A DNA stretch of 26,412 nt from Candidatus Zixiibacteriota bacterium. Its GTDB lineage: Bacteria > Zixibacteria > MSB-5A5 > GN15 > FEB-12. Where the stretch lies: positions 1 through 26,412 of the forward strand of contig JBGSIV010000220.1 in NCBI GenBank assembly GCA_041742355.1. The letters run 5' to 3'. A program made the translations under genes and the position numbers. Positions 8,893 through 26,412 of this stretch are shown piece by piece. Under the pieces are notes generated by a model. The model ran no database searches, was not told where the DNA came from, and saw only the letters and a program-made list of their open reading frames with translations. The stretch's first letter is position 1, and each line of letters opens with the position of its first letter.

Positions 8893-9305
8893 GCCGGGTG
8901 GACAAGACCAAAGTCAACGTCATCGACCTTGCCGACGGCCTCACGCCGCATGATGAGGCAACGGCAGTGCGTTGCAAGTTCATCCTCGTGAGCCAGGAAC
9001 AGGAGGTGACCCTCGTTTTCGGCCGGATCGCCGAATACAAGTATCACGCCAACCTCCTGGAGCGATTCTGCTGGATGCACCGGATTCCCTCCGGTTGGGA
9101 GCACAAGCCGGACATATATGCCCTCTACGAGAAGGGGGTCAATGTGCGGGGGGGAGGGTACTTCATCGTCGATTACTGTGGCCGGGTGCTTCGCATCTTC
9201 GGGCGTTCCACGGCCTACGGGGCCTACGACGAGGATCGGCTGCGAAAGGTGCTGGCCGGGTCGCCTCACTTTTCTACGTGGGAGATCGATTGGGAAGGAG
9301 ACTAA
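8889..9305 (+). CDS. Hypothetical protein resembling the Janus/Ocnus (PHPT1) phosphohistidine phosphatase family
   Basis: Colinear motifs CKFILV / LVFG..YKYHANL / VRGGGY / LRIFGRSTAYG / WEIDW, against PHPT1 FKYVLI / IVRG..EYHADI / CLGGGR / IHVYGYSMAYG / YEVTW. ATGA overlap with the PHP gene. Confidence 0.65.
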   Translation: MSRVDKTKVNVIDLADGLTPHDEATAVRCKFILVSQEQEVTLVFGRIAEYKYHANLLERFCWMHRIPSGWEHKPDIYALYEKGVNVRGGGYFIVDYCGRVLRIFGRSTAYGAYDEDRLRKVLAGSPHFSTWEIDWEGD

Positions 9306-9502: not shown

Positions 9503-9859
9503 ATGTTTGATACCTTCTTCCCAATTCTGCTTCTCGTAATTGTCGCAACCGGCATCGCCGGTGTTCTGGTCGCGTTCTCCATACTCTTCGGCCGGCGCAC
9601 CTCGCTGGGTAAGAAGAACGAGCCATACGAGTGCGGCATCGAGCCCTTTGGCAACACCAGGAACCCGGTGCCGGTCAAATTCTACCTCGTTGCTATTTCG
9701 TTCATTCTGTTTGATATAGAGCTGATTTTCCTTCTCCCCTGGGCAGTGGTCGCCCGCGACTTGGGCGCCTACGGCTTTTGGTCCATGGCCGTCTTTGTGA
9801 CAATTATTGTCGTCGGCTACGTGTACGAATTGAGCCGGGGAGCGCTGAAATGGGATTAG
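9503..9859 (+). CDS. nuoA: NADH-quinone oxidoreductase subunit A
   Basis: [39 protein letters not shown]. Confidence 0.97.
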
Positions 9860-10353
9860 AAGAGAAGATCCCCGACTCAATCATCCTGACCTCGCTGGAC
9901 AAGATGGTCAACTGGGCTCGGAAACGGTCGATGTGGCCGCTCGGGTTCGGACTGGCGTGCTGCGCTATTGAGATGATTTCGACGTTTGCCTCGCACTTTG
10001 ATCTGGCCCGCTATGGCATGGAGGTCATGCGGCCGTCGCCGCGCCAGGCCGACCTGATGATCGTGGCCGGCCGGGTCTCGGTGAAAATGGCGCCGGTGGT
10101 TAAGACCCTGTACGAGCAGATGCCTAACCCGAAATGGGTCATTTCGATGGGAGCATGCGCCTCGTGTGGCGGTGTCTTCAATAATTACGCGATCGTCCAG
10201 GGCGTTGATCGAATCATCCCCGTGGACATATACGTTCCCGGCTGCCCTCCGCGGCCCGAACAACTCATGGATGGTATTCTGCGGCTCTACGAGAAGGTTG
10301 AGAAAGAGTCCGTAAAGGATGTGCGCGACGAGTGGGGGCGCAGGGCCGTATAA
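9850..10353 (+). CDS. nuoB: NADH-quinone oxidoreductase subunit B
   Basis: [45 protein letters not shown] (N2 ligands). Start moved to ATG 9850 (MGLEEK), which overlaps the end of nuoA. Confidence 0.97.
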
Positions 10354-10374
10354 GATCGGGCAGTAAGCGACAGC

Positions 10375-10941
10375 ATGACGGAAACTAACGACCAGCACAT
10401 TGTGAATTCCGGAACAAGCCTGGATATCGACGCAAGGATCCGGCAGTTCCTAATCGAGCAGTTCGGCGATGCCATCCTCAAGGATGAGGTGTTCCGCGGC
10501 GACCGCCAGTACACGGTCAAGGCGGAAAAGCTGTACTCCATCTGCCGCGCGTTGCAGGACAACGACAGCCTGGATGTGCGCTGGCTCGCCGATATCACCT
10601 GCGTCGATTGGCTCGGCCATCCCGAGGAAGAGCACGGCCGATTTGAAGTCGTTTACAACCTCTGCTCGCTGAGCCACAAGTACCGCTTTTTCCTCATGGC
10701 CCGTCTCCCGGGCGACAATCCCCGCATTCAGTCGGTCGTCGACCTCTGGCACGGCGCGAACTGGCTCGAACGCGAGGTGTGGGATTTGTTCGGCATCCGA
10801 TTCGAAGGCCACCCGGAACTGACCAAGATCCTGACCCCCGACGAACTGGAGGGACATCCGCTGCGGAAGGATTTCCCCTTGACCTACGAGCAGCCCAAAT
10901 TCAGTTGGAATCTGAATGAACCGCCGGAGATCGTGAAATAA
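10375..10941 (+). CDS. nuoC: NADH-quinone oxidoreductase subunit C
   Basis: RFEVVYNL, ANWLEREVWDLFGIRFEGHP, GHPLRKDFPL. Confidence 0.97.
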   Translation: MTETNDQHIVNSGTSLDIDARIRQFLIEQFGDAILKDEVFRGDRQYTVKAEKLYSICRALQDNDSLDVRWLADITCVDWLGHPEEEHGRFEVVYNLCSLSHKYRFFLMARLPGDNPRIQSVVDLWHGANWLEREVWDLFGIRFEGHPELTKILTPDELEGHPLRKDFPLTYEQPKFSWNLNEPPEIVK

Positions 10942-12116
10942 TGGCCACCGGAGAGAAGACCATAACCATTAATATGGGCCCCCAGCACCCGTCGACCCAC
11001 GGTGTGCTCCGGGTAATTGTCGAACTCGACGGTGAAACGGTCGTCCGCGCCCGCCCGGTGATTGGCTACCTCCATACGGGTATCGAAAAGACCATGGAGT
11101 CCAAGCTGTACTATAAGGCGCTGCCCTGCACCGACCGCATGGACTACCTCGCTCCGATGTCGAACAACCTCGGCTACTGCCTGGCGGTCGAGAAGCTCAT
11201 GGGCATCGAGGTACCCGAAAAAGTCAAGTGGGCGCGAGTCTGCCTTGCCGAGTTGACCCGTATCAACTCCCACCTGGTCTGGCTCGGCACGCACGCCCTC
11301 GATCTCGGTGCGATGTCGATGCTCCTCTATACGTTTCGCGAACGGGAGCTGATCCTCGACATCTACGAGGCCTGCGGCGGCCAGCGCATGATGACCAGCT
11401 ACATCCGCATCGGCGGGCTCGCTCACGAACTGCCCGGGGACTTCGACGTCAGGGTCCGCAAAATGGTCGACACCATCAGCGAACGGATGAAGGATTACGA
11501 GGGCCTGCTCACCAATAACGAGATTTTCATCAGCCGCACCAAGGGTGTGGCCGTGATCTCGGCCGAAGATGCGATCAACTGGTCGCTTTCCGGCCCGATG
11601 CTGCGCGGCTCCGGTATTGCCCGCGACCTCCGCAAAGATGCGCCTTACTCGGGTTACGAGAACTTCGATTTTAAAGTCGCCCTCGGCAAAAAGGGGGACG
11701 CCTACGACCGCTACCTCCTTCGCCTGGAGGAAATCCGGCAGTCGCTGCGGATCTGCCGGCAGGCAATCGACGGCATGCCGGAGGGTCCATACCGGGCCCA
11801 TGTCCCGGGGGTCGTACTGCCGCCCAAAGAAGATGTGCTGTACAAGATGGAGTCGATGATTTTCCACTTCAAGATAATCACCGAAGGATTCAGCGCCCCG
11901 GTCGGCTCGGTTTACCAGGGGATCGAATCCCCCAAGGGTGAACTCGGGTTTTACATCACCGGCGATGGCACCAACCATCCGCGCCGGATCCGGGTCCGCC
12001 CGCCGTCGTTCGTCAACCTGGCCTGTCTGCCGAAGTTGTGCGAAGGCCGCCTGTTCTCCGACGTCGTCTGCGCCATCGGTTCCATAGATATCGTGCTCGG
12101 TGAGGTGGATCGATGA
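10941..12116 (+). CDS. nuoD: NADH-quinone oxidoreductase subunit D
   Basis: NMGPQHPSTHGVLR, GYLHTGIEK, DRMDY, ESPKGELG, DIVLGEVDR. Confidence 0.98.
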   Translation: MATGEKTITINMGPQHPSTHGVLRVIVELDGETVVRARPVIGYLHTGIEKTMESKLYYKALPCTDRMDYLAPMSNNLGYCLAVEKLMGIEVPEKVKWARVCLAELTRINSHLVWLGTHALDLGAMSMLLYTFRERELILDIYEACGGQRMMTSYIRIGGLAHELPGDFDVRVRKMVDTISERMKDYEGLLTNNEIFISRTKGVAVISAEDAINWSLSGPMLRGSGIARDLRKDAPYSGYENFDFKVALGKKGDAYDRYLLRLEEIRQSLRICRQAIDGMPEGPYRAHVPGVVLPPKEDVLYKMESMIFHFKIITEGFSAPVGSVYQGIESPKGELGFYITGDGTNHPRRIRVRPPSFVNLACLPKLCEGRLFSDVVCAIGSIDIVLGEVDR

Positions 12117-12589
12117 TACTGACCCAGGAATCGGTCAAGCTGATTAAAGAAAAGGTGCCGCTCTACCCGCGGCGCAAGTCGGCCATTCTGCCGGCGCTGA
12201 CGATTGCCTACCACCAGCTGGGCTATGTCGATGACGACATCTACCGCGAGATCGCCGACATTATCAAAGTCCCGTATGTCGAGATCGCCGAGGCGGCGAC
12301 ATTCTACACGATGTTTCCCAAGGCACCGCGCGGCAAGTATCTGATCCAGGTCTGCCACAATATCTCCTGCGCGCTCCTGGGGGCTGATTCCCTTATCGGC
12401 TACCTCGAGAAGCGCCTCGGTATCGCCAAAGGGGAGACCACCCCGGACAAGCTGTTCACGCTGATTTCCGTGGAATGCCTCGGATCGTGTGCGACCGCCC
12501 CGATGATGCAGATTAACCACGATTTCTACGAGAATCTGACCCCCCAGAAGGTGGATCAGATCCTTGATGAGTTGAGGGCCGAAGCCTGA
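12113..12589 (+). CDS. nuoE: NADH-quinone oxidoreductase subunit E
   Basis: ATFYTMF, VCHNISC, VECLGSCATAPMM (N1a [2Fe-2S] ligands). Confidence 0.97.
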   Translation: MILTQESVKLIKEKVPLYPRRKSAILPALTIAYHQLGYVDDDIYREIADIIKVPYVEIAEAATFYTMFPKAPRGKYLIQVCHNISCALLGADSLIGYLEKRLGIAKGETTPDKLFTLISVECLGSCATAPMMQINHDFYENLTPQKVDQILDELRAEA

Positions 12590-13926
12590 TGTTCTACTCG
12601 CCCGTCATAACGAACGCGGCCGAAGCCGCGACGAATGACAAGCTGCACCTGTTCAAGTACGTCGAGGATCCCGAACAGCATAAGCTCGAGACGTACGTCA
12701 AACACTGCGGCTACCAGGCCTGGCAGAAAGTCCTCGCCGGTATGAAGCCGGACGAGGTAATCGACGAGGTCAAGCGCTCCGGCCTCCGCGGCCGCGGAGG
12801 CGCCGGTTTCCCCACCGGCATGAAATGGAGTTTTGTCCCGAAAAACTCCCCCAAACCCCGCTACCTCTGCTGCAACGCCGACGAATCCGAACCGGGCACC
12901 TGCAAGGACCGCGTGCTCATGGAACGCGACCCGCACGGCGTGATCGAGGGCATGGCTATTGCCGCCTACGCTATCGGCTGCCACCGCATGTTCATCTACA
13001 TCCGGGGCGAATTCGGCCACCCCATCCGGCGCATGGAAGAAGCGGTGGCGGAAGCCTACAAAGGCGGACACCTTGGCAAAAACATCTACGGCTCCGGCTA
13101 CGACCTTGACATGGTGGTCCACACCGGCGGCGGTGCCTATATCTGCGGCGAAGAAACCGCCCTGCTGAATTCGCTCGAAGGAGAGCGCGGCATGTCCCGT
13201 ATCCGCCCGCCCTTCCCGGCGATCGAGGGCCTGTACGCCTGCCCGACGATCGTCAATAACGTCGAATCGCTCGCGGCCGTGCCGCACATCATTCGCCACG
13301 GCGCCGACTGGTACAAGAAGATGGGCACGGAGAAGTCGGCCGGCACCAAAATTTTCTCCCTCTCCGGCCACGTCAACCGCCCCGGTAACTACGAAGTCGA
13401 GCTCGGCTTCCCGTTGAAAAAGCTCATCTACGACCCGGCCTACGGCGCGGGCATCAAAGACGGCAAGAAGCTGAAAGGTGTTATCCCCGGCGGTGCCTCG
13501 ACGCCGTTCCTCACCCCGGACATGCTCGAGAAAGCCAATCTCGACTATGAGTCGCTCCAGTCGGTTGGCTCGATGCTCGGGTCCGGCGCGGTAATCGTCT
13601 TCAACGAAGATACGTGCATCGTATGGACTATTCTGAAACTCATCCACTTCTTCCGGCACGAGTCCTGCGGTAAGTGCACGCCCTGCCGCGAGGGCACCGG
13701 CTGGCTGGAGCAGGTGATCCATCGCATCGAGGACGGCCACGGCCGCCAGGGCGATCTTGAAATGATAGAAAACGTGTGCGGCAATATCCTCGGACGGACT
13801 ATCTGCCCGCTGGGTGATGCCGCCGTGATGCCGATTCAATCGGCGGTCAAACACTGGCGCGACGAGTGGGTGTACCACATCGAGCACGGCAAGTGCCAGG
13901 TGAAACCGCACTTCCCTTTTAAGTAA
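12589..13926 (+). CDS. nuoF: NADH-quinone oxidoreductase subunit F
   Basis: GLRGRGGAGFPTGMKW, NADESEPGTCKDR, GAYICGEETAL, ESCGKCTPCREG...TICPLG (FMN/NADH site, N3). Confidence 0.98.
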   Translation: MFYSPVITNAAEAATNDKLHLFKYVEDPEQHKLETYVKHCGYQAWQKVLAGMKPDEVIDEVKRSGLRGRGGAGFPTGMKWSFVPKNSPKPRYLCCNADESEPGTCKDRVLMERDPHGVIEGMAIAAYAIGCHRMFIYIRGEFGHPIRRMEEAVAEAYKGGHLGKNIYGSGYDLDMVVHTGGGAYICGEETALLNSLEGERGMSRIRPPFPAIEGLYACPTIVNNVESLAAVPHIIRHGADWYKKMGTEKSAGTKIFSLSGHVNRPGNYEVELGFPLKKLIYDPAYGAGIKDGKKLKGVIPGGASTPFLTPDMLEKANLDYESLQSVGSMLGSGAVIVFNEDTCIVWTILKLIHFFRHESCGKCTPCREGTGWLEQVIHRIEDGHGRQGDLEMIENVCGNILGRTICPLGDAAVMPIQSAVKHWRDEWVYHIEHGKCQVKPHFPFK

Positions 13927-13932
13927 GGCAGC

Positions 13933-16500
13933 ATGGCCCAGGACGTCAAAGATACACAGCAGCCGAAGACGGAGATCCCGACGGTTACGCTCACGATCGA
14001 CGGTCGCGCAGTGTCGGTGCCCAAGGGGACGACAGTGCTCGACGCCGCCCGTCAGCTCGGAATCCATATCCCGACCTTCTGCTGGCATCCCAAGCTCAAG
14101 TCGGTCGGCGCCTGCCGCATGTGTTATGTCGAGATCGAGAAGATGCCGAAGCTGCAGGTCTCATGTGCGACCGAAGCAATGGAAGGCATGGTCGTGCGCA
14201 CCGACTCCGACCAGGTCAAGCAGGGGCGCAAAGCGGTGCTCGAGTTCATCCTGCTCAACCACCCGCTCGACTGCCCGACCTGCGACAAGGGCGGGGAGTG
14301 CGACCTCCAGAACCTCACCTTCCGCCACGGCTTCGATGACAGCCGCTTCGAGTTCCAAAAGTACCGGTTCACCCACGGCGCCGAACATACGACCTTTGAC
14401 GACGTGCGGATCGGCCCGGAAATCGTCCTGAACCGGAATCGCTGCATCCTGTGCTACAAGTGCGTACGGGCGAACAAGGAAGCCTTCGGCGAGTACGACC
14501 TCGGCGTCTACGAGCGCGGCAACATCGCCGAGATCAATGCAGCCCCCGGCGAACTGGTCGACAACCCGTTTTCCGGCAACCTCGTCGAGATCTGCCCGGT
14601 CGGCGCGCTGACCAACTCCGACTGGCGCTATAAGATCCGCGTTTGGCTGACCAAGACCACGCCCTCGGTGTGCAACTTCTCCAGCACCGGCGCGAATATT
14701 CTGTTCTTCAAAGAAGACCATCAGAACAAGATCTTCCGCACCACCTCCCGGCGCAATGATGCGATCGACGATGGCTGGATTGCGGACGTCACCCGCTACG
14801 GGTACCAGATCGTCGGCTCGCCAGAGCGCCTGCGGACACCGCTCATTCGCCGCAACGGCAAGCAGGAACCGGCCACCTGGGACGAAGCGCTCGAACTCAT
14901 TCGCCGCCGCTTCGGCGAGATCACCGAGCGCAAAGGAAAAGTATGTATCGGCGGGCTGGCATCGCCGACCCTCGACAACGCGGCGCTGTATGCGTTCTCG
15001 AAGTTGTTCCGGACAGTCCTGAAATCGAACAATGTCGATTACCGCATCGACTACAAGATGCTCCCGACCTCGGACGGCAGCCTCTACCTGCGGCTGTCCC
15101 GGCGGCCATTCCGCATCGCCGATCTCGATACGAGCGACGTCATTGTGACCTTCGGCTCCGACCTCGTCCGTGAGCACCAGTTGCCCTACCTGCGTGTTCG
15201 CAAAGCCTGCAGCTTTAACGCTGCCCGGTACTTCTCCCTGACGCCGTATCCGGTGAAATCGGCCGATGTGGCCGAGTCCGAGCTGATCTACCGCTCCGGG
15301 ACCGAAGAGGTGGTGCTGACCGCTATCGGTCTGGCTGCCGTCGAAATGGGCCTGGTCGAAAAGTCGCTGGCGGCGGAGTTCAGCCGAAAGGTTGAGCCGA
15401 AGACACTGGCTGAGGCCTCGGCGATCTGCGGCGTCGACGAAGAGAGCATCCGCCTGCTGGCGCGAGCAATCGCAGATGCGCGTAAGGTTTCGATGTTCAC
15501 CGGAGAAATTGTCAGCGGATCGCCGGCGCGCGATATGATCGCGGCGGCGGCCCTGAATCTCAACCGACTCCTCGGCATTGAGCAGCGCGGACAACTCGCT
15601 GCTCTCGCCCACAGCGCCAACTCGGTCGGTGCCGAGAAGCTGGGCGTCGCACCTGCGCCGCCGGCGAGTGTCGTCGCGAAGCTGAAAGAGCTATGGGGCC
15701 AGTACCCCGAGGCAGAACCGTGCACCACCGATAAGATGCTGGCGCTGATGCGCAAGGAAGATATCGACGGCTTCTTCATTGTCGGGGCCGATCCCGTTAT
15801 GACCTACCCCGAACGCCAGTTCGCCGTCGATGGCCTGGAAAAGCTCGACTTCCTCGTCGTCTGTGATCTCTTTGAAACGGCGACGACCGAGCTGGCCGAC
15901 GTCGTCCTGCCGCTGGCGAGCTGGGCCGAGTTCGCCGGTGATTACACGAACCTCGAGGGGCGTGTGCAGCGGGCGGAACGGGCAATCAAGCCGATGCACC
16001 AGTCGAAGACACCCCTGGAGATCATCAACCTGATCGCCGAACGACTGGGGGGGAGGCTGTTCGAGACAGACCAGCACATGCAACGCGAAGTGTCCGCCCT
16101 CCTGGCCCTGCCGGATCAGGCGCACGCACCCGGGGAGTTCCTCGCGGTTGTTCCCGCGTCCGATGAAAACGCCAATGGCTCTGCGCTGCCCCTGTACGTG
16201 TGCGATGACCCGCATCACAGCGGCCACCTGACCGAAAAGGCCCACTCGCTGGCGAACTTCTGCGGCGAGGCCTACGTCGAGATGTCGCCCGATTTGGCGG
16301 CCAGACTCGATGTCACTGATGGAACCCCGGTGCGCGTCGAGTCCGAGGCGGGCAAGGTAGTCGTGGCGGTGCGGATTTCGGACCATCTCGATAACGACGT
16401 CGTGCTCATACCGCGCAACTTCGCCGCGACGGCCGTCAATGGGCTGCAACTGCGCAAGAGGCGGGTGGACCGGGTGAAAATCTCGAAAGTGGTTGATTAG
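13933..16500 (+). CDS. nuoG: NADH-quinone oxidoreductase subunit G (long form)
   Basis: IPTFCWHPKL..GACRMC...SC (N1b), HPLDCPTCDKGGEC (N5), RCILCYKC...ICPVGAL (N4), followed by molybdopterin-oxidoreductase-like domains. Confidence 0.96.
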   Translation: MAQDVKDTQQPKTEIPTVTLTIDGRAVSVPKGTTVLDAARQLGIHIPTFCWHPKLKSVGACRMCYVEIEKMPKLQVSCATEAMEGMVVRTDSDQVKQGRKAVLEFILLNHPLDCPTCDKGGECDLQNLTFRHGFDDSRFEFQKYRFTHGAEHTTFDDVRIGPEIVLNRNRCILCYKCVRANKEAFGEYDLGVYERGNIAEINAAPGELVDNPFSGNLVEICPVGALTNSDWRYKIRVWLTKTTPSVCNFSSTGANILFFKEDHQNKIFRTTSRRNDAIDDGWIADVTRYGYQIVGSPERLRTPLIRRNGKQEPATWDEALELIRRRFGEITERKGKVCIGGLASPTLDNAALYAFSKLFRTVLKSNNVDYRIDYKMLPTSDGSLYLRLSRRPFRIADLDTSDVIVTFGSDLVREHQLPYLRVRKACSFNAARYFSLTPYPVKSADVAESELIYRSGTEEVVLTAIGLAAVEMGLVEKSLAAEFSRKVEPKTLAEASAICGVDEESIRLLARAIADARKVSMFTGEIVSGSPARDMIAAAALNLNRLLGIEQRGQLAALAHSANSVGAEKLGVAPAPPASVVAKLKELWGQYPEAEPCTTDKMLALMRKEDIDGFFIVGADPVMTYPERQFAVDGLEKLDFLVVCDLFETATTELADVVLPLASWAEFAGDYTNLEGRVQRAERAIKPMHQSKTPLEIINLIAERLGGRLFETDQHMQREVSALLALPDQAHAPGEFLAVVPASDENANGSALPLYVCDDPHHSGHLTEKAHSLANFCGEAYVEMSPDLAARLDVTDGTPVRVESEAGKVVVAVRISDHLDNDVVLIPRNFAATAVNGLQLRKRRVDRVKISKVVD

Positions 16501-16506
16501 GGATAT

Positions 16507-17490
16507 ATGGTTGAGAGCATTATCATAGCCGTGATCAAGGTCCTCGTGGTGGTCGTCACGGTTCTGACCGGCTGCGCCTACGCGACCTACCTCGAACGCA
16601 AGGTGCTCGGACACCTGCAGCACCGCATCGGGCCATCCTACGCCGGACCGTTCGGATTGCTCCAGCCGCTGGCCGACGGCGTTAAGCTCATCTTCAAGGA
16701 GGACATCGTCCCCGCCAACGCCGAACGTGTCACCTATGCCCTTGCGCCGATCGTATCGTTCGTCCCGGCGCTCATGGCGTTCGCGGTCGTGCCGTTCACG
16801 GCTGATTTCGAGCTCTTCGGCTACGCCATCCAGGGCGTCATCTCCGACTTGAACATCGGCATCCTCTGGATTTTCGCCGTGACCTCGCTGGGTGTCTACG
16901 GCATCGTCTTGGCCGGCTGGTCTTCCGGGTCGAAGTACTCTCTCATGGGCGGCATCCGCTCATCGGCCCAGATGATCTCGTACGAAATTTCTTACGGTCT
17001 CTCGATCATCGGCGTCATTCTGCTGGCCAACACGCTCTCCATGCGTGAACTGGTCGAGCAGCAGGCCACGATCATGGATTGGTACATCTGGAAGCAGCCG
17101 CTCGGGTTCATTCTTTACCTGATCTGCGCGATCGCCGAGACCAACCGCGCGCCGTTCGACCTGCCCGAAGCGGAGAGCGAACTGGTCGCCGGGTACCATA
17201 CCGAGTATTCGTCAATGCGTTTTTCGACTTTTTTTGTCGGCGAGTATGCCGCGATGATCGCGGTGTCGGCCGTGGGCACGACCATATTCTTCGGCGGCTG
17301 GCAGGGACCGCTTTTGCCGCCGTTCATCTGGTTTTTCCTGAAAGTGTTCGCGTTCATGTTCTTCTACATCTGGCTGCGGGCAACCTTCCCGCGGTTGCGC
17401 TATGATCAGCTCATGTCATTCGGCTGGAAAGTCCTGTTCCCGCTGGCGTTACTCAACACGATTGTGACCGCTGCATTCGTGATGCTCTAA
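16507..17490 (+). CDS. nuoH: NADH-quinone oxidoreductase subunit H
   Basis: ERKVLGHLQHRIGP, GLLQPLADGVKLIFKED, AETNRAPFDLPEAESELVAGYHTEYS, PRLRYDQLM. Confidence 0.98.
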   Translation: MVESIIIAVIKVLVVVVTVLTGCAYATYLERKVLGHLQHRIGPSYAGPFGLLQPLADGVKLIFKEDIVPANAERVTYALAPIVSFVPALMAFAVVPFTADFELFGYAIQGVISDLNIGILWIFAVTSLGVYGIVLAGWSSGSKYSLMGGIRSSAQMISYEISYGLSIIGVILLANTLSMRELVEQQATIMDWYIWKQPLGFILYLICAIAETNRAPFDLPEAESELVAGYHTEYSSMRFSTFFVGEYAAMIAVSAVGTTIFFGGWQGPLLPPFIWFFLKVFAFMFFYIWLRATFPRLRYDQLMSFGWKVLFPLALLNTIVTAAFVML

Positions 17491-17513
17491 CAGGGATGAT
17501 GAGGTAGCAGGCG

Positions 17514-18020
17514 ATGAAGGAAATTCTGAAAGCGTTTGTCAACACGGTGTATATGACGCCCAAAGGGCTGTTCATTACCCTGAAGCATCTGTTCATGAAA
17601 CCGGTCACGCTGGACTACCCGAAGCAGAAGAAGCCGATGACGCCGCGCTACCGCGGCCGTCACTACCTGGAACGGTACGACGACGGGACCGAGCGGTGCG
17701 TCTGCTGCGGTCTGTGTGCCGCGGCCTGCCCGGCCGATGCCATTTACATGGAGCCCGAGGAGACCGAAAAGGGTGAGCGGCGCGCCAAAACTTACGAAAT
17801 CAACCTGCTGCGTTGCATCTTCTGCGGCTACTGCGAAGAAGCCTGCCCGGAAGAGGCCATCTTCCTCGGCCAGGATTACGAATTCTCTTCGAGCGACAAG
17901 AACTCCTTCATCTGGATGAAGGAAGACATGCTCGTCCCGCACCCCCGGAAGGACAATCCGCTCAAGCGGATGTACCGGCGGGTGCGCAAAGTGTACGGCG
18001 TTACGGATAAGGTGCGATGA
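17514..18020 (+). CDS. nuoI: NADH-quinone oxidoreductase subunit I
   Basis: CVCCGLCAAACP and CIFCGYCEEACP (N6a/N6b). Confidence 0.98.
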   Translation: MKEILKAFVNTVYMTPKGLFITLKHLFMKPVTLDYPKQKKPMTPRYRGRHYLERYDDGTERCVCCGLCAAACPADAIYMEPEETEKGERRAKTYEINLLRCIFCGYCEEACPEEAIFLGQDYEFSSSDKNSFIWMKEDMLVPHPRKDNPLKRMYRRVRKVYGVTDKVR

Positions 18021-18625
18021 GTCTCGACACTGTCATATTCATATTTTCCGCCGTGGTGGCCGTGTTCGGCGCGACCATGATGATTGTGCAGCGCAACCCG
18101 GTGGCCTCGGTGCTGTACCTGATACTCTCGCTGGTGGCCCAGGCGGTCCTGTATATCCAGCTGGGGTCGGTGTTCATGGGGGCGATCCTCGTCGTGGTGT
18201 ACGCCGGGGCGATCCTTGTGCTGTTCCTGTTTGTGATCATGCTGCTGAACCTGCGCGGCACCGAGGACCTCGGACGGGGATCGGGGCCACTCAATCAGCT
18301 CACGAAATATGTATTCGCCGTCCTGTTCGTCGTCGAATTGGTGTTCGTCGTCAGGGCCGGGTTCTTCGCGGAGACTATCGCCGTCAGCGTGCTGACCGGA
18401 CCGCCGGCGACCGACGGCTTCGGCTCGGTGGAGAACGTCGCCAAGCTCCTTTTCACGCGCTACCTCTATCCCTTCGAGCTGACCGCCGTGTTGCTTCTGG
18501 CGGCGGTGGTGGGCGCGGTCGCCATTGCCAAGCGTGAGCGGGAAGATTTCGCGACGGAGGAAGGGGAAGCGGCTCACTCTGGTGACAAGCCGGCGTCGCC
18601 GCCCATGGAAAAGGTGGAAGGGTAA
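18017..18625 (+). CDS. nuoJ: NADH-quinone oxidoreductase subunit J
   Basis: RNPVASVLYL, VYAGAILVLFLFVIMLL, YLYPFELTAVLLL. Confidence 0.97.
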   Translation: MSLDTVIFIFSAVVAVFGATMMIVQRNPVASVLYLILSLVAQAVLYIQLGSVFMGAILVVVYAGAILVLFLFVIMLLNLRGTEDLGRGSGPLNQLTKYVFAVLFVVELVFVVRAGFFAETIAVSVLTGPPATDGFGSVENVAKLLFTRYLYPFELTAVLLLAAVVGAVAIAKREREDFATEEGEAAHSGDKPASPPMEKVEG

Positions 18626-18628
18626 TCT

Positions 18629-18931
18629 ATGGTCCCGATTTCAGCATACCTCATCGTCGCGGCGGTGCTCTTCGGCATCGGTACGGTCGGCGTGCTCGTC
18701 TCACGCAACATCATCATCCTGTTCATGAGCGTGGAACTCATGCTCAACGCGGCGAACCTGGCGCTGATCGCGTTCTCGCGGGCGCTGAATGTCATGGACG
18801 GCCACGCCTTCGTGTTCCTCGTCTTGACTGTCGCTGCGGCCGAGGCCGCAGTCGGTCTGGCTATGGTCTTGACCATATTCCGCAACCGCGATTCGATCAA
18901 CGTTGACAGGTACAATCTCTTGAAGTGGTAG
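18629..18931 (+). CDS. nuoK: NADH-quinone oxidoreductase subunit K
   Basis: FMSVELMLNAANL, VAAAEAAVGLA; 100 aa. Confidence 0.98.
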   Translation: MVPISAYLIVAAVLFGIGTVGVLVSRNIIILFMSVELMLNAANLALIAFSRALNVMDGHAFVFLVLTVAAAEAAVGLAMVLTIFRNRDSINVDRYNLLKW

Positions 18932-18944
18932 GAAGCAGGCAGGC

Positions 18945-20891
18945 ATGTCGGATTACATTTTTCTCATACCGCTCTTCCCGCTGATCGGATTCCTGATCAA
19001 CGGCCTGCTGCTCGGCAAGCTCTCCCGCCCGGTGGTCAACGTGGTGGCCTGCGCCTCCGTCTTCGCCTCCTTTGTCGTGGCGGTGATGACGTTCTTCGAG
19101 TTGACCTCGCTGCCGGCGACCGCCCGGGTGATCGAGCAGACGCTCTTCACCTGGATCCCCTCGGGGAATTTTCACGTCAACATCGGCTTCCTCGCCGACC
19201 CGTTGTCGGCCGTCATGATCCTCGTCGTCACCGGCGTCGGCTTCCTCATTCACGTCTACTCGACCGCGTATATGTCCCACGATCCGGGTTTCGGACGGTA
19301 CTTCGCCTACCTGAACCTGTTTACCTTCTCCATGCTGACCCTCGTGCTGGCGGACAATTTCCTCCTCATGTTCGTCGGGTGGGAAGGAGTGGGGTTGTGC
19401 TCCTACCTGTTGATCGGATTCTGGTTCGAGAAGCAGTCGGCCTCGGATGCGGGCAAGAAGGCGTTCATCGTCAACCGCATCGGCGATTTCGGCTTCCTGC
19501 TCGGCATGTTCATCATCTTCTGGCAGGTCGGCTCGCTGCACTTCCCGACTGTCATGGCTGCAGCCCCGACCGTCTTTGTCGCGGGCGGCGGCCTGATCAC
19601 CGCGGTCTGCCTCCTGCTCTTCGTGGGCGCGACCGGCAAGTCGGCCCAGATCCCCCTGTTTGTGTGGCTGCCCGACGCCATGGAGGGCCCGACCCCGGTG
19701 TCGGCGCTTATCCATGCCGCCACGATGGTGACCGCCGGCGTGTACATGATCGCCCGGACCAACGTGCTGTACCTGATGTCGTCCGATGCCCTGATGGTCG
19801 TGGCGATCATCGGCGCTGCAACTGCCTTCATGGCCGCGACCATCGGCCTGGCGCAAAATGACATCAAACGCGTGCTGGCCTACTCGACTGTCAGTCAGCT
19901 CGGTTACATGTTCCTTGCCTGCGGCGTGGCGTCGTTCACCGCGGGCGTGTTCCACCTGATGACTCACGCTTTCTTCAAGGCCCTGCTGTTCCTTGGCGCC
20001 GGTTCGGTTATCCACGCCATGAGCAACAAGCAGGACATGCGCGAGATGGGCGGTCTGAGCAAGTATCTCCCAATCACCTACCGAACCATGCTGATCGCGA
20101 CCCTTGCGATTGCAGGCATCCCCGGCCTCTCCGGGTTCTTCAGCAAAGATGAGATTCTCTGGAAAGCATTCTCGTCCGAGCACGGCCACCCGATCTTCTG
20201 GGTGGTCGGATTTGCAACCGCCGGCCTGACCGCGTTTTATATGTTCCGCCTCGTATACCTCACCTTCCACGGCAACGAGCGGATGGATGAGCACACGAAA
20301 CACCACCTGCATGAGTCACCCAAAGCGATGACCGTGCCGCTGATGGTTCTCGCCGTGCTCTCGATCGTCGGCGGCTGGGTGGGTATCCCGCACATCTTCG
20401 GCGTTACCAACCAGTTTGAGCATTGGCTTGAGCCGGTCATGGCCGGAGGCGGGGGACACGAAGCCGTCAGCGATGTCGTCCACACTTCGGCCGGCGGCTA
20501 TGGCGCCGGCATGGAGATCACGCTCATGGCGGCCTCGGTCGTGCTGGTTCTGGTGGCGATCTACCTCGCTTTCACGTTCTACCGGAAGCGGACGGACCTC
20601 GCGACCGCCTGGCGGGAACGGCTCTCCGGCCTCCACACGCTGCTCGTGAACAAGTACTACATCGATGAGATCTACCACGCGGTGATCGTGCGGCCGCTCA
20701 TCGGCATCTCGGTCTTCCTGTGGAAGTTCGTCGATGTCATGGTTATCGACGGTATCGCCAACGGCTCTGCCTTCGTGTACCAGTTGTCCTCCGAGGGATT
20801 ACGGAAAGTCCAGACGGGCCGGGTGCGCAGTTATGCCACGGCCTTCGTCGTCGGCGTTGTGGTCATTGTCGCTTACTTTGTGGCGGGCTAA
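18945..20891 (+). CDS. nuoL: NADH-quinone oxidoreductase subunit L
   Basis: GWEGVGLCSYLLIGFW, GKSAQIPLFVWLPDAMEGPTPVSALIHAATMVTAG, HAFFKALLFL. Confidence 0.98.
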   Translation: MSDYIFLIPLFPLIGFLINGLLLGKLSRPVVNVVACASVFASFVVAVMTFFELTSLPATARVIEQTLFTWIPSGNFHVNIGFLADPLSAVMILVVTGVGFLIHVYSTAYMSHDPGFGRYFAYLNLFTFSMLTLVLADNFLLMFVGWEGVGLCSYLLIGFWFEKQSASDAGKKAFIVNRIGDFGFLLGMFIIFWQVGSLHFPTVMAAAPTVFVAGGGLITAVCLLLFVGATGKSAQIPLFVWLPDAMEGPTPVSALIHAATMVTAGVYMIARTNVLYLMSSDALMVVAIIGAATAFMAATIGLAQNDIKRVLAYSTVSQLGYMFLACGVASFTAGVFHLMTHAFFKALLFLGAGSVIHAMSNKQDMREMGGLSKYLPITYRTMLIATLAIAGIPGLSGFFSKDEILWKAFSSEHGHPIFWVVGFATAGLTAFYMFRLVYLTFHGNERMDEHTKHHLHESPKAMTVPLMVLAVLSIVGGWVGIPHIFGVTNQFEHWLEPVMAGGGGHEAVSDVVHTSAGGYGAGMEITLMAASVVLVLVAIYLAFTFYRKRTDLATAWRERLSGLHTLLVNKYYIDEIYHAVIVRPLIGISVFLWKFVDVMVIDGIANGSAFVYQLSSEGLRKVQTGRVRSYATAFVVGVVVIVAYFVAG

Positions 20892-20898
20892 ATAACCG

Positions 20899-22497
20899 AT
20901 GGAAACACAGATCCTCACATATGTGACCTTTTTCCCGGTGATCGGGATCCTTGCGCTCCTGCTCGTGCCCAAAGACAGGCCGGATACGGTCAAAGGGGTG
21001 GCGCTGATCACGGCCGTTATCACCATGCTCCTGTCGTTCTTTCTCTGGGGCATGTTCGACAAGATGGCCCTCGGTATGCAATTCGAGATCGACACGCCGT
21101 GGGTGACCTCGCTGGGAATCCACTACCACCTCGGGATCGACGGCATCTCGCTGTTGCTGATTGTGCTCACCACGGTCCTGACCGTCCTCGCGATCCTCGC
21201 TTCGTGGCACTCGATCACAAAGGATATCAAGGGCTACTTCATCTCGATGCTCCTGTTGCAGGTCGGGATGATCGGCGTGTTTGTGTCGCTCGACCTCTTC
21301 CTCTTTTATGTCTTCTGGGAGGTCATGCTGATCCCGATGTACTTCATCATCGGGCTATGGGGCGGCCCGCGCCGAATCTACGCGGCGATCAAGTTTGTGC
21401 TGTTCACGATGTTCGGCTCGCTCCTCATGCTGGTCGGCATCATCTGGCTCCTCTTTGCCTACCACGGCTTCGCGGGCGAGTACACCTTTGACATCCTCAA
21501 GCTCTCGCAGATGCCGATCGGATTCCGGGAGCAATTGCTGCTCTTCGGGGCGTTTGCGCTGGCCTTTGCCATCAAAGTCCCGCTCTTTCCGTTCCACACG
21601 TGGCTGCCCGACGCTCACGTTGAAGCTCCCACCGCCGGGTCGGTCATCCTGGCCGGCGTGCTGCTGAAAATGGGGACGTACGGTTTCATCCGAATTTGCC
21701 TCCCGATGTTCCCCGATGCGACAGTCGCCTACCTGCCATACATCGCCGTCCTCTCGGTCATCGCGATCATCTACGGCGCGCTCGTCGCGATGGTGCAGAA
21801 AGACGTCAAGTCGCTCGTGGCGTTTTCGTCGGTCTCCCACATGGGTTTCGTCATGCTGGGAATCTTCGCGCTGAACCTCCAGGGTATGGAGGGGGCGATC
21901 ATGCAGATGGTGAACCACGGCGTTTCCACAGGGGCGCTGTTCCTTCTCGTCGGCATGCTCTATGACCGCCGCCACACCCGCCTCATCGAGGAATTCGGGG
22001 GCATCGCCAAAGTCATGCCGGTTTACTCGACCTTCTTCATGATCGTCGCCCTGTCGTCCATCGGCCTGCCGTTCACCAACGGCTTCGTGGGCGAATTCCT
22101 GATCCTGCTGGGCGCCTACGATCGGTCGGCAATTTACGGCGTTCTCGCGGCCTCCGGCGTCATCTTCGCCGCCGCCTACATGCTCTGGATGTACCAGCGG
22201 GTCATCTTCGGCAAAGTCACGAACCCGGCCAACGAGAAACTGATCGATATCGACTGGCGGGAGAGGATTATCCTGATCCCGCTGGTTGTGCTCATATTCT
22301 GGATCGGGATTTATCCCAAGCCGTTGTTCGAACGGATCGAACCGGCCGCGCAGCAGGTGCTCCTGAAAGTGGGGCGGGCGCAGTCGGTCGAGCTCGACGA
22401 TCAGTTCCGGGTGAACAAGGTCACCGTGGTGGATGTTACTGAAGAGAAACATCCCACGACGGTGGGGCTGAACCCGGAAGAAGGAGACGTGAAGTGA
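20899..22497 (+). CDS. nuoM: NADH-quinone oxidoreductase subunit M
   Basis: FYVFWEVMLIP, AIKVPLFPFHTWLPDAHVEAPTAGS, LLKMGTYG, SSVSHMG; polar C-terminal tail. Confidence 0.98.
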   Translation: METQILTYVTFFPVIGILALLLVPKDRPDTVKGVALITAVITMLLSFFLWGMFDKMALGMQFEIDTPWVTSLGIHYHLGIDGISLLLIVLTTVLTVLAILASWHSITKDIKGYFISMLLLQVGMIGVFVSLDLFLFYVFWEVMLIPMYFIIGLWGGPRRIYAAIKFVLFTMFGSLLMLVGIIWLLFAYHGFAGEYTFDILKLSQMPIGFREQLLLFGAFALAFAIKVPLFPFHTWLPDAHVEAPTAGSVILAGVLLKMGTYGFIRICLPMFPDATVAYLPYIAVLSVIAIIYGALVAMVQKDVKSLVAFSSVSHMGFVMLGIFALNLQGMEGAIMQMVNHGVSTGALFLLVGMLYDRRHTRLIEEFGGIAKVMPVYSTFFMIVALSSIGLPFTNGFVGEFLILLGAYDRSAIYGVLAASGVIFAAAYMLWMYQRVIFGKVTNPANEKLIDIDWRERIILIPLVVLIFWIGIYPKPLFERIEPAAQQVLLKVGRAQSVELDDQFRVNKVTVVDVTEEKHPTTVGLNPEEGDVK

Positions 22498-22715
22498 GCA
22501 ACGTCCTGATGTATGTCAAAGACGGCTGCCCATACTGCGCCGCCGCGATCAAGCACTATTCGGAGCAGGGGGTGCCGGTCGAGCAGATCAACGTGCACCG
22601 TGTCCCCGGCGCGAAAGAGAAAGTGCTGGAGCTGACCGGCGGCACGGCCATCGTGCCCGTGATTATCGAAGACGGCCAGGTCAAAAAGGGCTTCGGCGGC
22701 GGCTGAGGTTTCTAA
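22494..22715 (+). CDS. Glutaredoxin-like selenoprotein (Uxx-star type, CPYC ... GGG-U-GF*), with TGA 22704-22706 decoded as Sec
   Basis: RBS AAGGAG (22481-22486), GTG start overlapping the nuoM stop. CPYC motif, IVP cis-Pro motif, then GGC GGC GGC TGA GGT TTC TAA and a SECIS-like hairpin. The ORF track truncates it at 22706. Confidence 0.8.
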
Positions 22716-22743
22716 CAAGTGCGGGCGGCAGGTTGTCGCCCTC
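22704..22743 (+). promoter_or_regulatory. Putative bacterial SECIS element
   Basis: 8-bp stem GGGCGGCA (22723-22730) / TGTCGCCC (22734-22741) with apical loop GGT. There are 24 nt between the UGA and the loop, which fits the general bacterial SECIS model (G at the start of a small apical loop). Confidence 0.7.
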
Positions 22744-22754
22744 CGGGAAAGGCA

Positions 22755-24203
22755 ATGATAGATCTCACATCGGCAGGACTTGACTTCGCGCTCATAGCGC
22801 CGGAACTGGCGCTGATGATTGCTGCCTCGGTCATACTTCTGACCGGCTATGTCAAGAACCTCGGTAAGCTCAGCCCGTCTATCGGGCTGCTCGGCCTGGG
22901 CATCGCTATGGCCCTTGCCATCACCCACTGGGGCCGCCAGCACTCCGGCTTCTTCGGCATGGTCACTAACGACAACTTCGGTATGGCCTTCAAGGTCATC
23001 GCCGCGGGCACCTCGATGCTCGCCCTCCTCATGTCGCAGCGGTGGCTCACGGTCCGTGGGTACAACCGGCCGGAGTTCTACGCCCTTCTGCTGATGTCGA
23101 CTATCGGCATGATGGTCATGGCGAACACGACCGACCTCGTGGTGCTCTTCCTCGGGCTCGAGGTCATGTCGGTGCCGCTCTATGTGATGGCCGGCTACGC
23201 GAAGCGATCCCTTGAATCCAACGAGTCGGGCCTCAAGTACTTTATCATGGGCGCGTTCGCCAGCGCGTTCCTTCTCATGGGAATCGCGTTCGTGTTCGGT
23301 GCGGCCGGCACAACCGACCTGCGGCGCATTGTCGCCGACTTCACGTTCATCCTCGACCGGGCCGACACCTACCTGTTCGCCGGGACCGCGATGGTCCTGA
23401 TCGGGTTTGCGTTCAAAGTCGCGGCGGTACCTTTCCACGCCTGGGTTCCCGATGTCTACCAGGGCGCCCCGACCCCGGTAACGGCCTTCTTCTCGGTCGG
23501 ACCCAAGGCGGCCGGGTTTGCCGCGCTCCTGCGGATTTTCATGTTCGGCTTCGTGTCCCTTGAAATACTCTCGCAGGTGTTCTGGGTGCTGGCTGTGCTC
23601 ACGATGACCGTGGGCAACGTGTTGGCCCTGCGGCAGGGGAATATTAAACGACTGCTGGCCTACTCATCAATCGCCCACGCCGGGTATATCCTCGTGGCGC
23701 TGGCGGTGGGCGGGCCGGAGGCGATGTCGGCGGCCATTTTCTACCTTGTCGGCTATGCGTTCTTCAACCTCGGCGGGTTCGCCGTGGTGACGCTTATCGA
23801 GACGCGGTCCGGAAGCAAGGCGGAGTTCAGCGAGCTGCCGGGGCTGGCGAAAGCGCATCCGTACCTGGCGGTGGTGCTGGCGCTGTTCATGTTTGCCCTC
23901 TCGGGTTTCCCGCCGACAGTCGGGTTTTTCGGGAAGTTCTACCTGTTCTCGGCGGCGGTGAAGGCCGACTTCATCTGGCTGGCGATCATCGGGGTCATGA
24001 ACTCCTTCATCTCCGTCTACTACTACCTGCGGGTGGTAAAGGCGGTGTACTTCGAGGTGCCGGCAAGGGAGTTCGCCCGAGTCACGTACACCCCCGCGAT
24101 TGTGGTTGTGCTCTTTATCACGGCGGCGGGGACATTGGGGCTGGGCTTTTTCCCGCAGCAGCTTCTGGAGTTCTCGCAGAAGGCGCTGTTCGCCTTCCTG
24201 TAA
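22755..24203 (+). CDS. nuoN: NADH-quinone oxidoreductase subunit N
   Basis: LGLEVMSVPLY, ESGLKYFIMG, FKVAAVPFHAWVPDVYQGAPTP, NIKRLLAYSSIAHAGY, GFFGKF. Start moved to ATG 22755 (GGGAAAGG upstream). Confidence 0.97.
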   Translation: MIDLTSAGLDFALIAPELALMIAASVILLTGYVKNLGKLSPSIGLLGLGIAMALAITHWGRQHSGFFGMVTNDNFGMAFKVIAAGTSMLALLMSQRWLTVRGYNRPEFYALLLMSTIGMMVMANTTDLVVLFLGLEVMSVPLYVMAGYAKRSLESNESGLKYFIMGAFASAFLLMGIAFVFGAAGTTDLRRIVADFTFILDRADTYLFAGTAMVLIGFAFKVAAVPFHAWVPDVYQGAPTPVTAFFSVGPKAAGFAALLRIFMFGFVSLEILSQVFWVLAVLTMTVGNVLALRQGNIKRLLAYSSIAHAGYILVALAVGGPEAMSAAIFYLVGYAFFNLGGFAVVTLIETRSGSKAEFSELPGLAKAHPYLAVVLALFMFALSGFPPTVGFFGKFYLFSAAVKADFIWLAIIGVMNSFISVYYYLRVVKAVYFEVPAREFARVTYTPAIVVVLFITAAGTLGLGFFPQQLLEFSQKALFAFL

Positions 24204-24379: not shown

Positions 24380-26412
24380 CTACGCATTCGGCGCGAACGA
24401 TTCCACGAAGTCCTTCAGATCGGTCGCGATCTCAGCGGCCCGCTGATACCGTTTCTGCGGATCCTTCTTCAGCGCCTTCATAATGATATGGTCGAACAAC
24501 ATCGGGATCTGCGGATTGATGTCGCTCGGCTTATCCGGCTCGTGGTTGATAATCGCGTAAATCAATGACGTGATGTTCTCGCCCTTGAACGGACGGCGGC
24601 CAAGCAGCATTTCGTACATCACGACACCCAGCGAGAAGAGGTCGGCCCGATGGTCGCTTTTTTGGCCGCGAAGCTGCTCGGGAGAGATGTAGTTGGGCGT
24701 ACCCATAGCGATACCGGTCTTGGTCATCGAGCTGGTGTCAATACGGGCAATACCGTAATCCATCACCTTGACGCGATAGTCCTTCAGGACCATGATATTG
24801 GCCGGTTTTATATCACGGTGCACGATCCCCTGCTGGTGGGCGTACTGCAGGGCCGAGCAGATCTGCATGATGATCTCGGCGATAATCCGGTAATTGAACT
24901 TGGTCTTCTTCTTGATCATGTCCTCGAGTGTGCGCCCCTCGAGGTATTCCATGGCGATGTACTGCAGGGGGCCATCGGAGCCGACATCGTAGATCGTCAC
25001 GATGTTCGGGTGCGACAGCTTGCCCGCCGCTTGGGCCTCGCGGTAGAGGCGCTCCTTGAGCTCGTTCATCTCCTCAGGATCCGTCACAAAATCCAGCCGG
25101 ATCGTCTTGAGGGCGACCGGGCGGTTGATGGCCGGGTCGACGCCTTTGTAGACTAAGCCCATTGCTCCCTTACCGAGTGCCCCGGTTATCTGGTAGCGGC
25201 CGAGGCTGGCAGGGATCTGCGTCTGACCGGTGGGCCCGCTTCCCCAGGCACCGGACTCGGTTCCGGTCGATTCGTTGGACGTTGCTGCCTCGGTCGAGGG
25301 AGCGGCCAGGGAGATGTCGGCGGCATCATCGTCTTCAACCGTCGGGGCGGGGGAGTACGAGGAGGCGGCTTCACTGATCTGGAAATCGTCGTCATCCACC
25401 GAAGTGGCGTCGAACTGCGGCTCACGCATCTTTGCGCCCGGCTTCTGCTTGCCGTCGAACTCAATGGGCTTGTCGATGTCTATGGCGGTGTGATCGACTG
25501 GAGCTTCATTGCCTTTCCCGCCCACGCCGACAGAATCATAGTCAATAACCGCGGTCGCCGCGTTTTCGGGAGCATTGGCGTGGTCGCGCAGCTCGCGGAC
25601 GGGGGCGCGGGCGATGTCCTCTGGCTTCACCTGCCGGCGTTCGGCCAGCGCGATCGGATCGAGGTCGAGATCCTTGCGTCGGGCCGGGGCCTCGCCCCTG
25701 ATCAACTGGGATTCCAGCATCGGTGCGGCAACCATGAAGAGCAGCAGTTCGAGGGCGATGTAAATCGTTTCCGGGATGACCCGAAACGCGCTGACCATGA
25801 AGTAGTTGACATTGGCCAGCAGGATGAGGCCGATAATGAGGATTACAAACCGGTACATGACCGGCACCTGCGGCAGGAGGAAGCCGAAGACGGCTCCAAG
25901 CGCCAGCATGATCAGAACGGTTGTGCCCGTGCCGCGCTGCGGGATCAGAAAGTCGCTGTTGATGATATTCTCGGCGGCTGCGGCCTGAATTTGCAGTTTT
26001 GTGGCGCCGGCCGACTGGACAGTCCGAAACGTTTCGCGAGCGGCAATGTCGTTGAGTCCGATCATGACCAGTTTGCCCGCCAGCTGTGAGCGATTGAACC
26101 GATCGCTCAGGATATCGGAGGCGGAGAAGTTGACGATCGATCCCTCGGGCGGGAAGTTGACGAAAAACTCACTGCGCTCGTTGATCGGAATGACCGTGTG
26201 ACTGCCCAGGTGAATCTCGGCGGCTTCGATGACTTTGATATCGGACGCGCTCACCCCCCGGTAGGCGGCGGCCGCGATGAGCGGCAGCGCGGGGTAGTAG
26301 TAGCCCTCGAAGTGCACCAGCAGGGGCTGGTGGCGCAGGACGCGGTCGTGATCGGGCTGGACGTAGTCGAAGCCGAGCTTGGGGGAGATCTCCAGCAATC
26401 TTCGGGCCGGCA
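24380..26412 (-). CDS. CHASE2-domain membrane Ser/Thr protein kinase (Hanks type), 5'-truncated by the window
   Basis: The frame stays open to the window edge. CHASE2-like LGFDYVQPDHDRVLRHQPL...LAGKLVMIG...IQAAAAENII, then three TM helices, an acidic linker, and a kinase with LGKGAMGLVY, VALK, HRDIKPAN, DYG, GTPNYISPEQ, DLFSLG. Confidence 0.92.
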   Translation of the reverse strand, partial: PARRLLEISPKLGFDYVQPDHDRVLRHQPLLVHFEGYYYPALPLIAAAAYRGVSASDIKVIEAAEIHLGSHTVIPINERSEFFVNFPPEGSIVNFSASDILSDRFNRSQLAGKLVMIGLNDIAARETFRTVQSAGATKLQIQAAAAENIINSDFLIPQRGTGTTVLIMLALGAVFGFLLPQVPVMYRFVILIIGLILLANVNYFMVSAFRVIPETIYIALELLLFMVAAPMLESQLIRGEAPARRKDLDLDPIALAERRQVKPEDIARAPVRELRDHANAPENAATAVIDYDSVGVGGKGNEAPVDHTAIDIDKPIEFDGKQKPGAKMREPQFDATSVDDDDFQISEAASSYSPAPTVEDDDAADISLAAPSTEAATSNESTGTESGAWGSGPTGQTQIPASLGRYQITGALGKGAMGLVYKGVDPAINRPVALKTIRLDFVTDPEEMNELKERLYREAQAAGKLSHPNIVTIYDVGSDGPLQYIAMEYLEGRTLEDMIKKKTKFNYRIIAEIIMQICSALQYAHQQGIVHRDIKPANIMVLKDYRVKVMDYGIARIDTSSMTKTGIAMGTPNYISPEQLRGQKSDHRADLFSLGVVMYEMLLGRRPFKGENITSLIYAIINHEPDKPSDINPQIPMLFDHIIMKALKKDPQKRYQRAAEIATDLKDFVESFAPNA

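Follow-up and report, generated by a model that had tools for sequence, protein, structure and literature searches.

The window analysed here, a 26,412-nucleotide stretch from a Candidatus Zixiibacteriota bacterium (contig JBGSIV010000220.1), carries a complete nuoA-N operon into which a small glutaredoxin-like gene of the Uxx-star type is set between nuoM and nuoN (Table 1). The sequence-only reading had described this ORF together with a ribosome-binding site, a GTGA overlap with nuoM, a CPYC motif, a TGA-GGT-TTC-TAA end and a following hairpin, and direct reading of the letters found all of them in place. The gene starts with the GTG at 22494-22496, so that its GTGA is common to the stop codon TGA of nuoM (22495-22497), and its 3' end reads GGC GGC GGC TGA GGT TTC TAA. 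The hairpin at 22723-22741, GGGCGGCA-GGT-TGTCGCCC, places its loop 24 nt past the TGA and lies 13 nt upstream of the probable ATG of nuoN, a start position inferred from the sequence and from relatives. No promoter- or terminator-like site was found at the nuoM-nuoN junction.

Table 1. Features of the nuoM-nuoN region and its operon, in window coordinates
Feature	Position	Strand	Evidence
nuoA-N operon, complete	9503..24203	+	NCBIfam; the Uxx-star gene is the sole extra ORF
nuoM	20899..22497	+	TIGR01972, 634 bits (NCBIfam)
Shine-Dalgarno-like AAGGAG	22481..22486	+	7 nt 5' of the GTG; read from the sequence
Uxx-star glutaredoxin-like gene, probable selenoprotein (73 aa, Sec71)	22494..22715	+	NF041212, 99.2 bits
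CPYC motif (Cys12, Cys15)	22527..22538	+	Alignment of loci
Val54-Pro55, cis-Pro loop by homology	22653..22658	+	Invariant in the alignment
In-frame TGA, almost certainly selenocysteine	22704..22706	+	TGA in 98/98 loci; Cys in 8 distant homologues
Gly-Phe and true stop TAA	22707..22715 (TAA 22713-22715)	+	Two codons then stop in 98/98 loci
Putative bacterial SECIS hairpin, 8-bp stem, GGU loop	22723..22741	+	Entirely 3' of the stop codon
nuoN, probable ATG at 22755	22755..24203	+	TIGR01770, 440 bits, same frame

Several other features of the window were recorded in passing. Just upstream of nuoA, a 138-aa ORF (8889-9305) gave a weak match to the Janus/Ocnus family (E 1.4e-5, over the Pfam cut-off), which is unusual in a bacterium, and a CHASE2-domain Ser/Thr kinase on the minus strand (24380-26410) converges on nuoN. 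In nuoG (13933-16500) the four-cysteine motif of the N7 cluster is down to one Cys (C247, S250, A254, A284); the motif varies within the home order and is intact in most distant families. The host genome (G000) also encodes additional NuoN-like antiporter subunits at C250:5161-6648 and C259:9552-10949, and most relatives have one.

When translated through the TGA, the protein scored 99.2 bits against the Uxx-star model NF041212 (cut-off 66), covering model positions 1-70 of 70. It fell below the cut-offs of the named families 1, 2 and 3 (67.7, 59.2 and 58.9 bits against 72, 100 and 97, respectively) and we therefore regard the Zixibacteria protein as an unnamed Uxx-star branch; the HUGP/GUXX-star fusion model was not reached either (70.4 bits against 325). 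NF041114, NF041211 and NF047338 are sub-models of NF041212, and NF045501 is the fusion model.

Judging from the sequence evidence, the product is almost certainly a selenoprotein in which the TGA is read as selenocysteine. The earlier claim of a 73-aa Uxx-star selenoprotein is upheld by the score against NF041212, by the conservation of the TGA, by the Sec machinery of the host and by orthologues with cysteine. Among 105 loci examined, 100 matched the Uxx-star gene; of the remaining five, two had lost it, two gave weak matches to something unrelated and one was later recognised as a fusion. The dropping of two duplicates left 98. The alignment of homologues that had been proposed as a check showed TGA at the Sec site in all 98 related loci, followed in each by exactly two codons and a stop. 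That final stop varied (TAA in 60 loci, TGA in 21 and TAG in 17), all four Gly synonyms were used in the codon after the TGA, and the two post-TGA codons varied synonymously only. Cysteine occupied the Sec site in 8 of 150 distant representatives, among the matches listed; no such form was found among close Zixibacteria homologues, and a DNA pattern scan for a Cys version of the exact tail returned no glutaredoxin among the 80 of 82 matches examined.

For the hairpin, the bacterial SECIS model was taken from the legend of Fig. 2 in the accessible part of PMC13188914, with a loop of 3-9 nt carrying an early G, a stem of 4-16 bp and a distance of 16-37 nt after the UGA. The window hairpin fits this description (8 bp, GGU loop, 24 nt), as do hairpins in 94 of 97 loci; of 570 control segments, 207 fit it. 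Six stem positions were each paired in 90-97 of the 97 loci, by five to eight pair types. Taken alone, the window hairpin was no more stable than its shuffles (z -0.91 to +0.45), so it stands above chance only across relatives. A search of Rfam matched no SECIS family, and a genome-wide survey for a UGA plus hairpin yielded 374 candidates and was too noisy for use.

The genes for selenocysteine insertion, for which the sequence-only reading had asked to look, are all present in the genome (93.8% complete): selA, which passes its cut-off; selB, split into two pieces that lie at the ends of contigs C4 and C18; a tRNA-Sec gene (selC) with a TCA anticodon; and selD, which itself has an in-frame TGA. 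An ordinary stop at the TGA and a protein of 70 residues would agree with the databases, whose entries for 119 of the 120 best homologues stop at GFGGG, and with the other TGA stops in the window, those of 3 of 14 nuo genes plus nuoM. Such a stop is hard to reconcile, however, with a TGA that never varies while the following stop does, with two further codons that change only synonymously, with a conserved SECIS and with the existence of Cys orthologues, and we consider it extremely improbable.

Other selenium-related genes of this genome were seen along the way. On contig C4 (26656-42759), bshC, tRNA-Sec, selA and selB occupy a 16-kb stretch, and in many other Zixibacteria, too, about 20 kb or less separates bshC from selA. 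At C106:2-631 another selD-like match exceeds the cut-off, in a frame that runs to 694 codons or more, and the minus strand of C121 (TGA at 35557) probably encodes a further selenoprotein, a thioredoxin that looks secreted, has a UxxC motif and comes with a SECIS-like hairpin.

NF041212 gave an over-cut-off match in 57 of 61 close relatives; across the Zixibacteria, 137 of 201 genomes had one, and the matches there number 138. A survey of nuoM-nuoN neighbourhoods, suggested together with the original reading, found the gene at this junction in every one of these matches: 135 lay directly before nuoN, the other three directly after nuoM at contig ends, and none elsewhere. One genome (G179) has two differing copies, each before a nuoN (C1:934332 and C1:1854493; L247 and L248), one of which follows a masked or gapped stretch and is perhaps an artefact of assembly or binning. 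An over-cut-off match was lacking in 64 of the 201 genomes, including all those of families f6, f7, f9, f10, f14, f15 and f16 and the single f19 genome, and selA was found in 190 of the 201. In a tree of 38 operons (FastTree, midpoint root) gene-bearing and gene-lacking operons interleave; for this reason we regard residence in the nuo operon as ancient, with an ancestral insertion and repeated loss, and count at least nine separate losses that left the operons intact. Among recent losers, the junction of L227 still holds an entire copy with a frameshift and that of L229 a clear relic of a deletion; L231 and L230 keep faint traces that are singly not significant, and L228 and L232 keep nothing. 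No other change of nuo gene order was found at the junction in 20 gene-lacking loci.

Distances between Uxx-star proteins co-vary with those of NuoM (rho 0.65) and NuoN (0.69; 0.68-0.78 for NuoN windows of the same length), and the median dN/dS of 0.30 over 38 pairs indicates purifying selection. This selection on the protein itself argues against the idea that the element exists for selenium-responsive control, with UGA pausing and SelB on the hairpin tuning nuoN translation and, through it, the assembly of complex I. In 91 loci the median distance from the end of the hairpin to the inferred nuoN start is indeed 17 nt, but compact spacing is normal in operons and the gap widens to 120-370 nt in 9 of the 91 loci, which makes such control very improbable.

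Beyond this setting the gene keeps other company. In a wider sample, 38 of 79 loci had no nuo genes, all 38 with the TGA followed by 2-5 codons, and among 121 neighbouring ORFs at 29 of those loci 62 showed lineage-specific partners, among them citrate synthase (5 loci), heavy-metal ATPase (4 loci), TPR protein (4 loci) and kinase (3 loci). A pattern of nuoM plus the gene gave 109 matches, and in all 80 that were listed NuoM was at least 73% identical to that of a Zixibacteria locus; the pattern is biased to Zixibacteria motifs, and other phyla may have the arrangement. Among 80 metagenome nuoM loci, 73 had no Uxx-star gene nearby.

The sequence-only reading had gone further and suggested that the protein may be dedicated to complex I, an idea that gene order, co-inheritance and rare fusions favour but that repeated loss, unrelated neighbours elsewhere and other passengers in the operon weaken. 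As an accessory factor would be, the gene is encoded and inherited with the nuo genes; it is not required wherever complex I occurs, since some relatives whose operon is intact lack it or hold a decayed copy. Across 18 gene-bearing and up to 20 gene-lacking operons, no cysteine of a Nuo subunit tracked the gene. The cysteine at position 105 of NuoF was present in 13 of 18 gene-bearing and in none of 11 gene-lacking operons, yet was kept in 5 of 5 recent losers. Within the home order, 5 of 6 recent losers and 26 of 100 carriers were without a heme-copper oxidase family gene (post hoc Fisher test, p 0.008), and no oxidase association was seen in other orders (24/37 versus 32/55, p 0.66). Complex prediction of NuoG with the 70-residue form, which has no Sec tail, scored 0.00 in two runs, a value that speaks neither for nor against binding.

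These observations have to be weighed against the possibility that the protein is a general cytoplasmic thiol oxidoreductase whose gene came early to reside in a strongly expressed operon, without any particular connection to complex I. Other phyla fix the gene beside unrelated housekeeping genes, lineage by lineage; the nuo operons of relatives host further passengers, namely a TPR gene, a transposase-like ORF and, in two families, a methyltransferase gene that separates nuoL from nuoM; and both the nine or more losses from operons that stay intact and the lack of a Nuo cysteine signature would be in keeping with such a lodger. Against this, none of the 138 matches has been relocated, the gene interrupts the membrane-arm genes instead of trailing the operon, its start overlaps the nuoM stop or lies no more than 15 nt from it in 86 of 100 loci, and fusions with NuoM exist. 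We regard a mere lodger as possible but unlikely, and the proposition that complex I is the main client of the protein as about evenly balanced.

The passengers themselves were characterised briefly. The methyltransferase gene (L222-L226; for example L225:13356-14117) encodes a SAM-methyltransferase of about 250 aa with a CxxC motif, occurs in two Zixibacteria families that lack the Uxx-star gene, where it is matched strongly in 5 of 9 genomes of one family and 7 of 10 of the other, and is a possible complex I or quinone-modifying factor. Further passengers lie between nuoD and nuoE (L239 and L250) and between nuoE and nuoF (L240): an ORF that resembles by eye a REP-associated tyrosine transposase, with no Pfam match at 1e-4, and a TPR protein gene.

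Among 29 homologues longer than the free protein, 24 were of the known C-GCAxxG-C-C fusion type and three were in-frame fusions of NuoM and the Uxx-star protein; a fourth NuoM fusion cluster was found in a later search. At locus L122 the fusion is seen at the DNA level, complete with the TGA-GF-stop end and the hairpin, and L066 has one further open frame from NuoM into the gene in an assembly that may contain indel errors. NuoM identity among the fusions is 89-97% and linker identity 53-94%, with in-frame indels only, and in all of them the small gene's RBS-like stretch and its Met, as an internal ATG, are preserved. They fall in one small clade, with unfused relatives at 79-96% NuoM identity, and in one fusion cluster the reading passes the Sec position in a different frame, so that the in-frame Sec is lost. 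An ancestral fusion in this clade with a single reversion was considered and then dropped once more unfused relatives turned up. The fusions show that tethering is tolerated and modestly raise the likelihood of a link to complex I; they may be stop-loss events beside continued internal translation.

A stronger interpretation of the fusions would have the protein held at or near NuoM as a stable supernumerary subunit of the zixibacterial complex. Four fusion clusters whose linker indels are all in frame, the further open frame at L066 (subject to the possible assembly indels) and the translational coupling to nuoM could all be cited for it. Fused and unfused forms alternate among close relatives, however, the in-frame Sec has been lost in one cluster and the gene has been lost repeatedly. 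Moreover, the C-terminus of NuoM is periplasmic, but neither a signal nor a membrane segment is present in the free protein. The accessible part of PMC8357420 did not confirm the side on which this C-terminus lies. Even with NDUFA2 as a precedent, as described in the accessible part of PMC8762328, we think a stable subunit improbable.

To relate these patterns to structure, the protein was modelled with AlphaFold2 using 53 sequences and cysteine in place of Sec. The model has a glutaredoxin/NrdH fold with a pLDDT of 94 overall and 89-93 in the tail, and its top Foldseek matches were glutaredoxins (TM 0.74-0.77). The Sec tail, which the sequence-only reading had described as flexible, was modelled as docked at this confidence. 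Val54 and residue 71 appeared as isolated beta-bridge residues in the full model, and the bridge at Val54 was gone in a control model of residues 1-67, from which the tail had been removed. In proteins of the thioredoxin fold, the cysteine of glutathione or of a substrate pairs with the backbone of the cis-Pro loop. Because of this role of the loop and the Val54-residue 71 bridges, the Gly-Sec-Gly tail is predicted to lie in the glutathione site near Cys12, docked on the cis-Pro loop like a tethered glutathione.

Conservation gives some further guidance on the chemistry. Val54-Pro55 and Cys12 are invariant in the aligned loci, and 3 of the 98 have Ser in place of Cys15; among the eight distant Cys forms the second cysteine of the CxxC motif is lost in six and the first in one. 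The loss of Cys15 in some loci and distant Cys forms is consistent with Cys12 and Sec71 forming the redox pair, which we consider fairly likely. The analogy with glutathione-dependent glutaredoxin made earlier fails, since model searches of the genome (93.8% complete) matched neither gshA nor gshB while bacillithiol genes are present: the genome has trxB, bshC and a separate BrxA/B gene, and a YpdA match below cut-off. Bacillithiol is not a determinant of the gene's presence by this survey, in which bshC occurred in 170 of 201 genomes and did not track the Uxx-star gene.

The same three residues could instead bind metals or metalloids, with Cys12, Cys15 and Sec71 chelating Cu, Hg or As and so shielding the Fe-S chain of complex I. 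The accessible part of PMC13188914 suggests that the Sec of UXX-star proteins may be a metal ligand, four Thermoleophilia loci follow a heavy-metal P-type ATPase, and the tail as modelled would add a third ligand at the CxxC face. At the Zixibacteria loci examined, by contrast, no metal-resistance gene was present, the cis-Pro loop is invariant as is typical of oxidoreductases, and Cys15 is expendable; we give this function little credence.

We prefer to explain the locus in terms of thiol chemistry. The gene would yield a soluble 73-aa selenoprotein of glutaredoxin/NrdH fold, translated in step with the membrane subunits of complex I, with SelB on the hairpin just 3' of the stop codon decoding UGA71 as Sec, a step well supported by sequence. 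The Gly-Sec-Gly-Phe tail may fold back on the Val54-Pro55 loop, as in the model, and serve as a built-in substitute for glutathione. Cys12 would then attack an oxidised or thiolated cysteine of a client, and Sec71 would resolve the mixed bond by linking to Cys12 within the protein, which thioredoxin reductase or bacillithiol would restore. From gene context, the likeliest client would be complex I, during assembly or after oxidative or nitrosative damage, and the protein would be a helpful yet dispensable accessory. As a whole, this account of a Sec protein with a tail resembling tethered glutathione and complex I as likeliest client is offered tentatively, as falling a little short of an even chance. 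It is unlikely, in our view, that zixibacterial complex I has a selenoprotein module of its own, a glutaredoxin that carries Gly-Sec-Gly as a tethered mimic of glutathione, binds to the complex, repairs or regulates it and is sometimes fused to NuoM; if true, this would be the first accessory component of any respiratory complex I to contain selenium.

These results may matter beyond the phylum. Uxx-star proteins are widespread and usually mis-annotated, with a function that is so far predicted, and the phylum-wide position in the nuo operon, the NuoM fusions and the natural losses together would give the family a concrete client. The modelled self-docking tail may be a general mechanism of the family, a glutaredoxin that has no need of glutathione. 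Should the link to complex I be true, selenium supply would bear directly on the upkeep of the respiratory chain in Zixibacteria; should it fail, a reliable annotation fix for hundreds of genes remains.

Comparison with known systems sets the protein somewhat apart from each of them. With the dithiol glutaredoxins and NrdH-redoxins (cGrx2, 4tr0; E. coli Grx3; NrdH, 1h75) it has in common the fold, the CPYC motif and the Val-Pro loop, but a Gly-Sec-Gly-Phe tail takes the place of their last helix: the protein ends three residues after the GGG, and the AlphaFold2 model has no helix after the strand at 62-65. It differs from glutathione-dependent glutaredoxins in a host that shows no glutathione synthesis genes. 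Animal thioredoxin reductase carries Sec near its C-terminus in an arm whose Gly-rich tail can reach a dithiol centre, the system to which the tail had originally been compared. The likeness is loose, the present protein having a single Sec without an adjacent Cys instead of a vicinal Cys-Sec pair, no FAD or NADPH domains, and a tail that is modelled as docked. Known Sec glutaredoxins have their Sec in an N-terminal UxxC motif, according to the accessible part of PMC13188914. Closer to complex I, NDUFA2 (B8) is a small mitochondrial complex I subunit of thioredoxin fold with two redox-capable residues (PMC8762328, accessible part). Both are small thioredoxin-fold proteins tied to complex I, here through gene context; NDUFA2 has no CxxC or Sec and is a proven subunit, and the likeness claims no homology.

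The nearest comparison is with the Uxx-star family itself, which is reportedly defined by Haft and Tolstoy 2025 (mSystems) and by Haft and Gwadz 2023. In its accessible part, PMC13188914 treats the UXX-star families as predicted selenoproteins and suggests a link to metal binding or handling, not respiration, with no mention there of complex I or Zixibacteria, and 'UXX' does not occur in the accessible main text of PMC13326102. The family is thus already known and its placement in the nuo operon apparently undescribed; the literature searched, which excluded the papers defining the Uxx-star families and the supplements, held no description of a nuo-embedded selenoprotein. What is new here is the in-frame fusion to NuoM and the modelled docking of the tail in an organism without glutathione genes. 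Like the rest of its family, the protein has a CxxC glutaredoxin fold with Sec three residues from the end and is usually annotated three residues short; it differs in that the Zixibacteria gene is fixed between nuoM and nuoN and is occasionally fused to NuoM.
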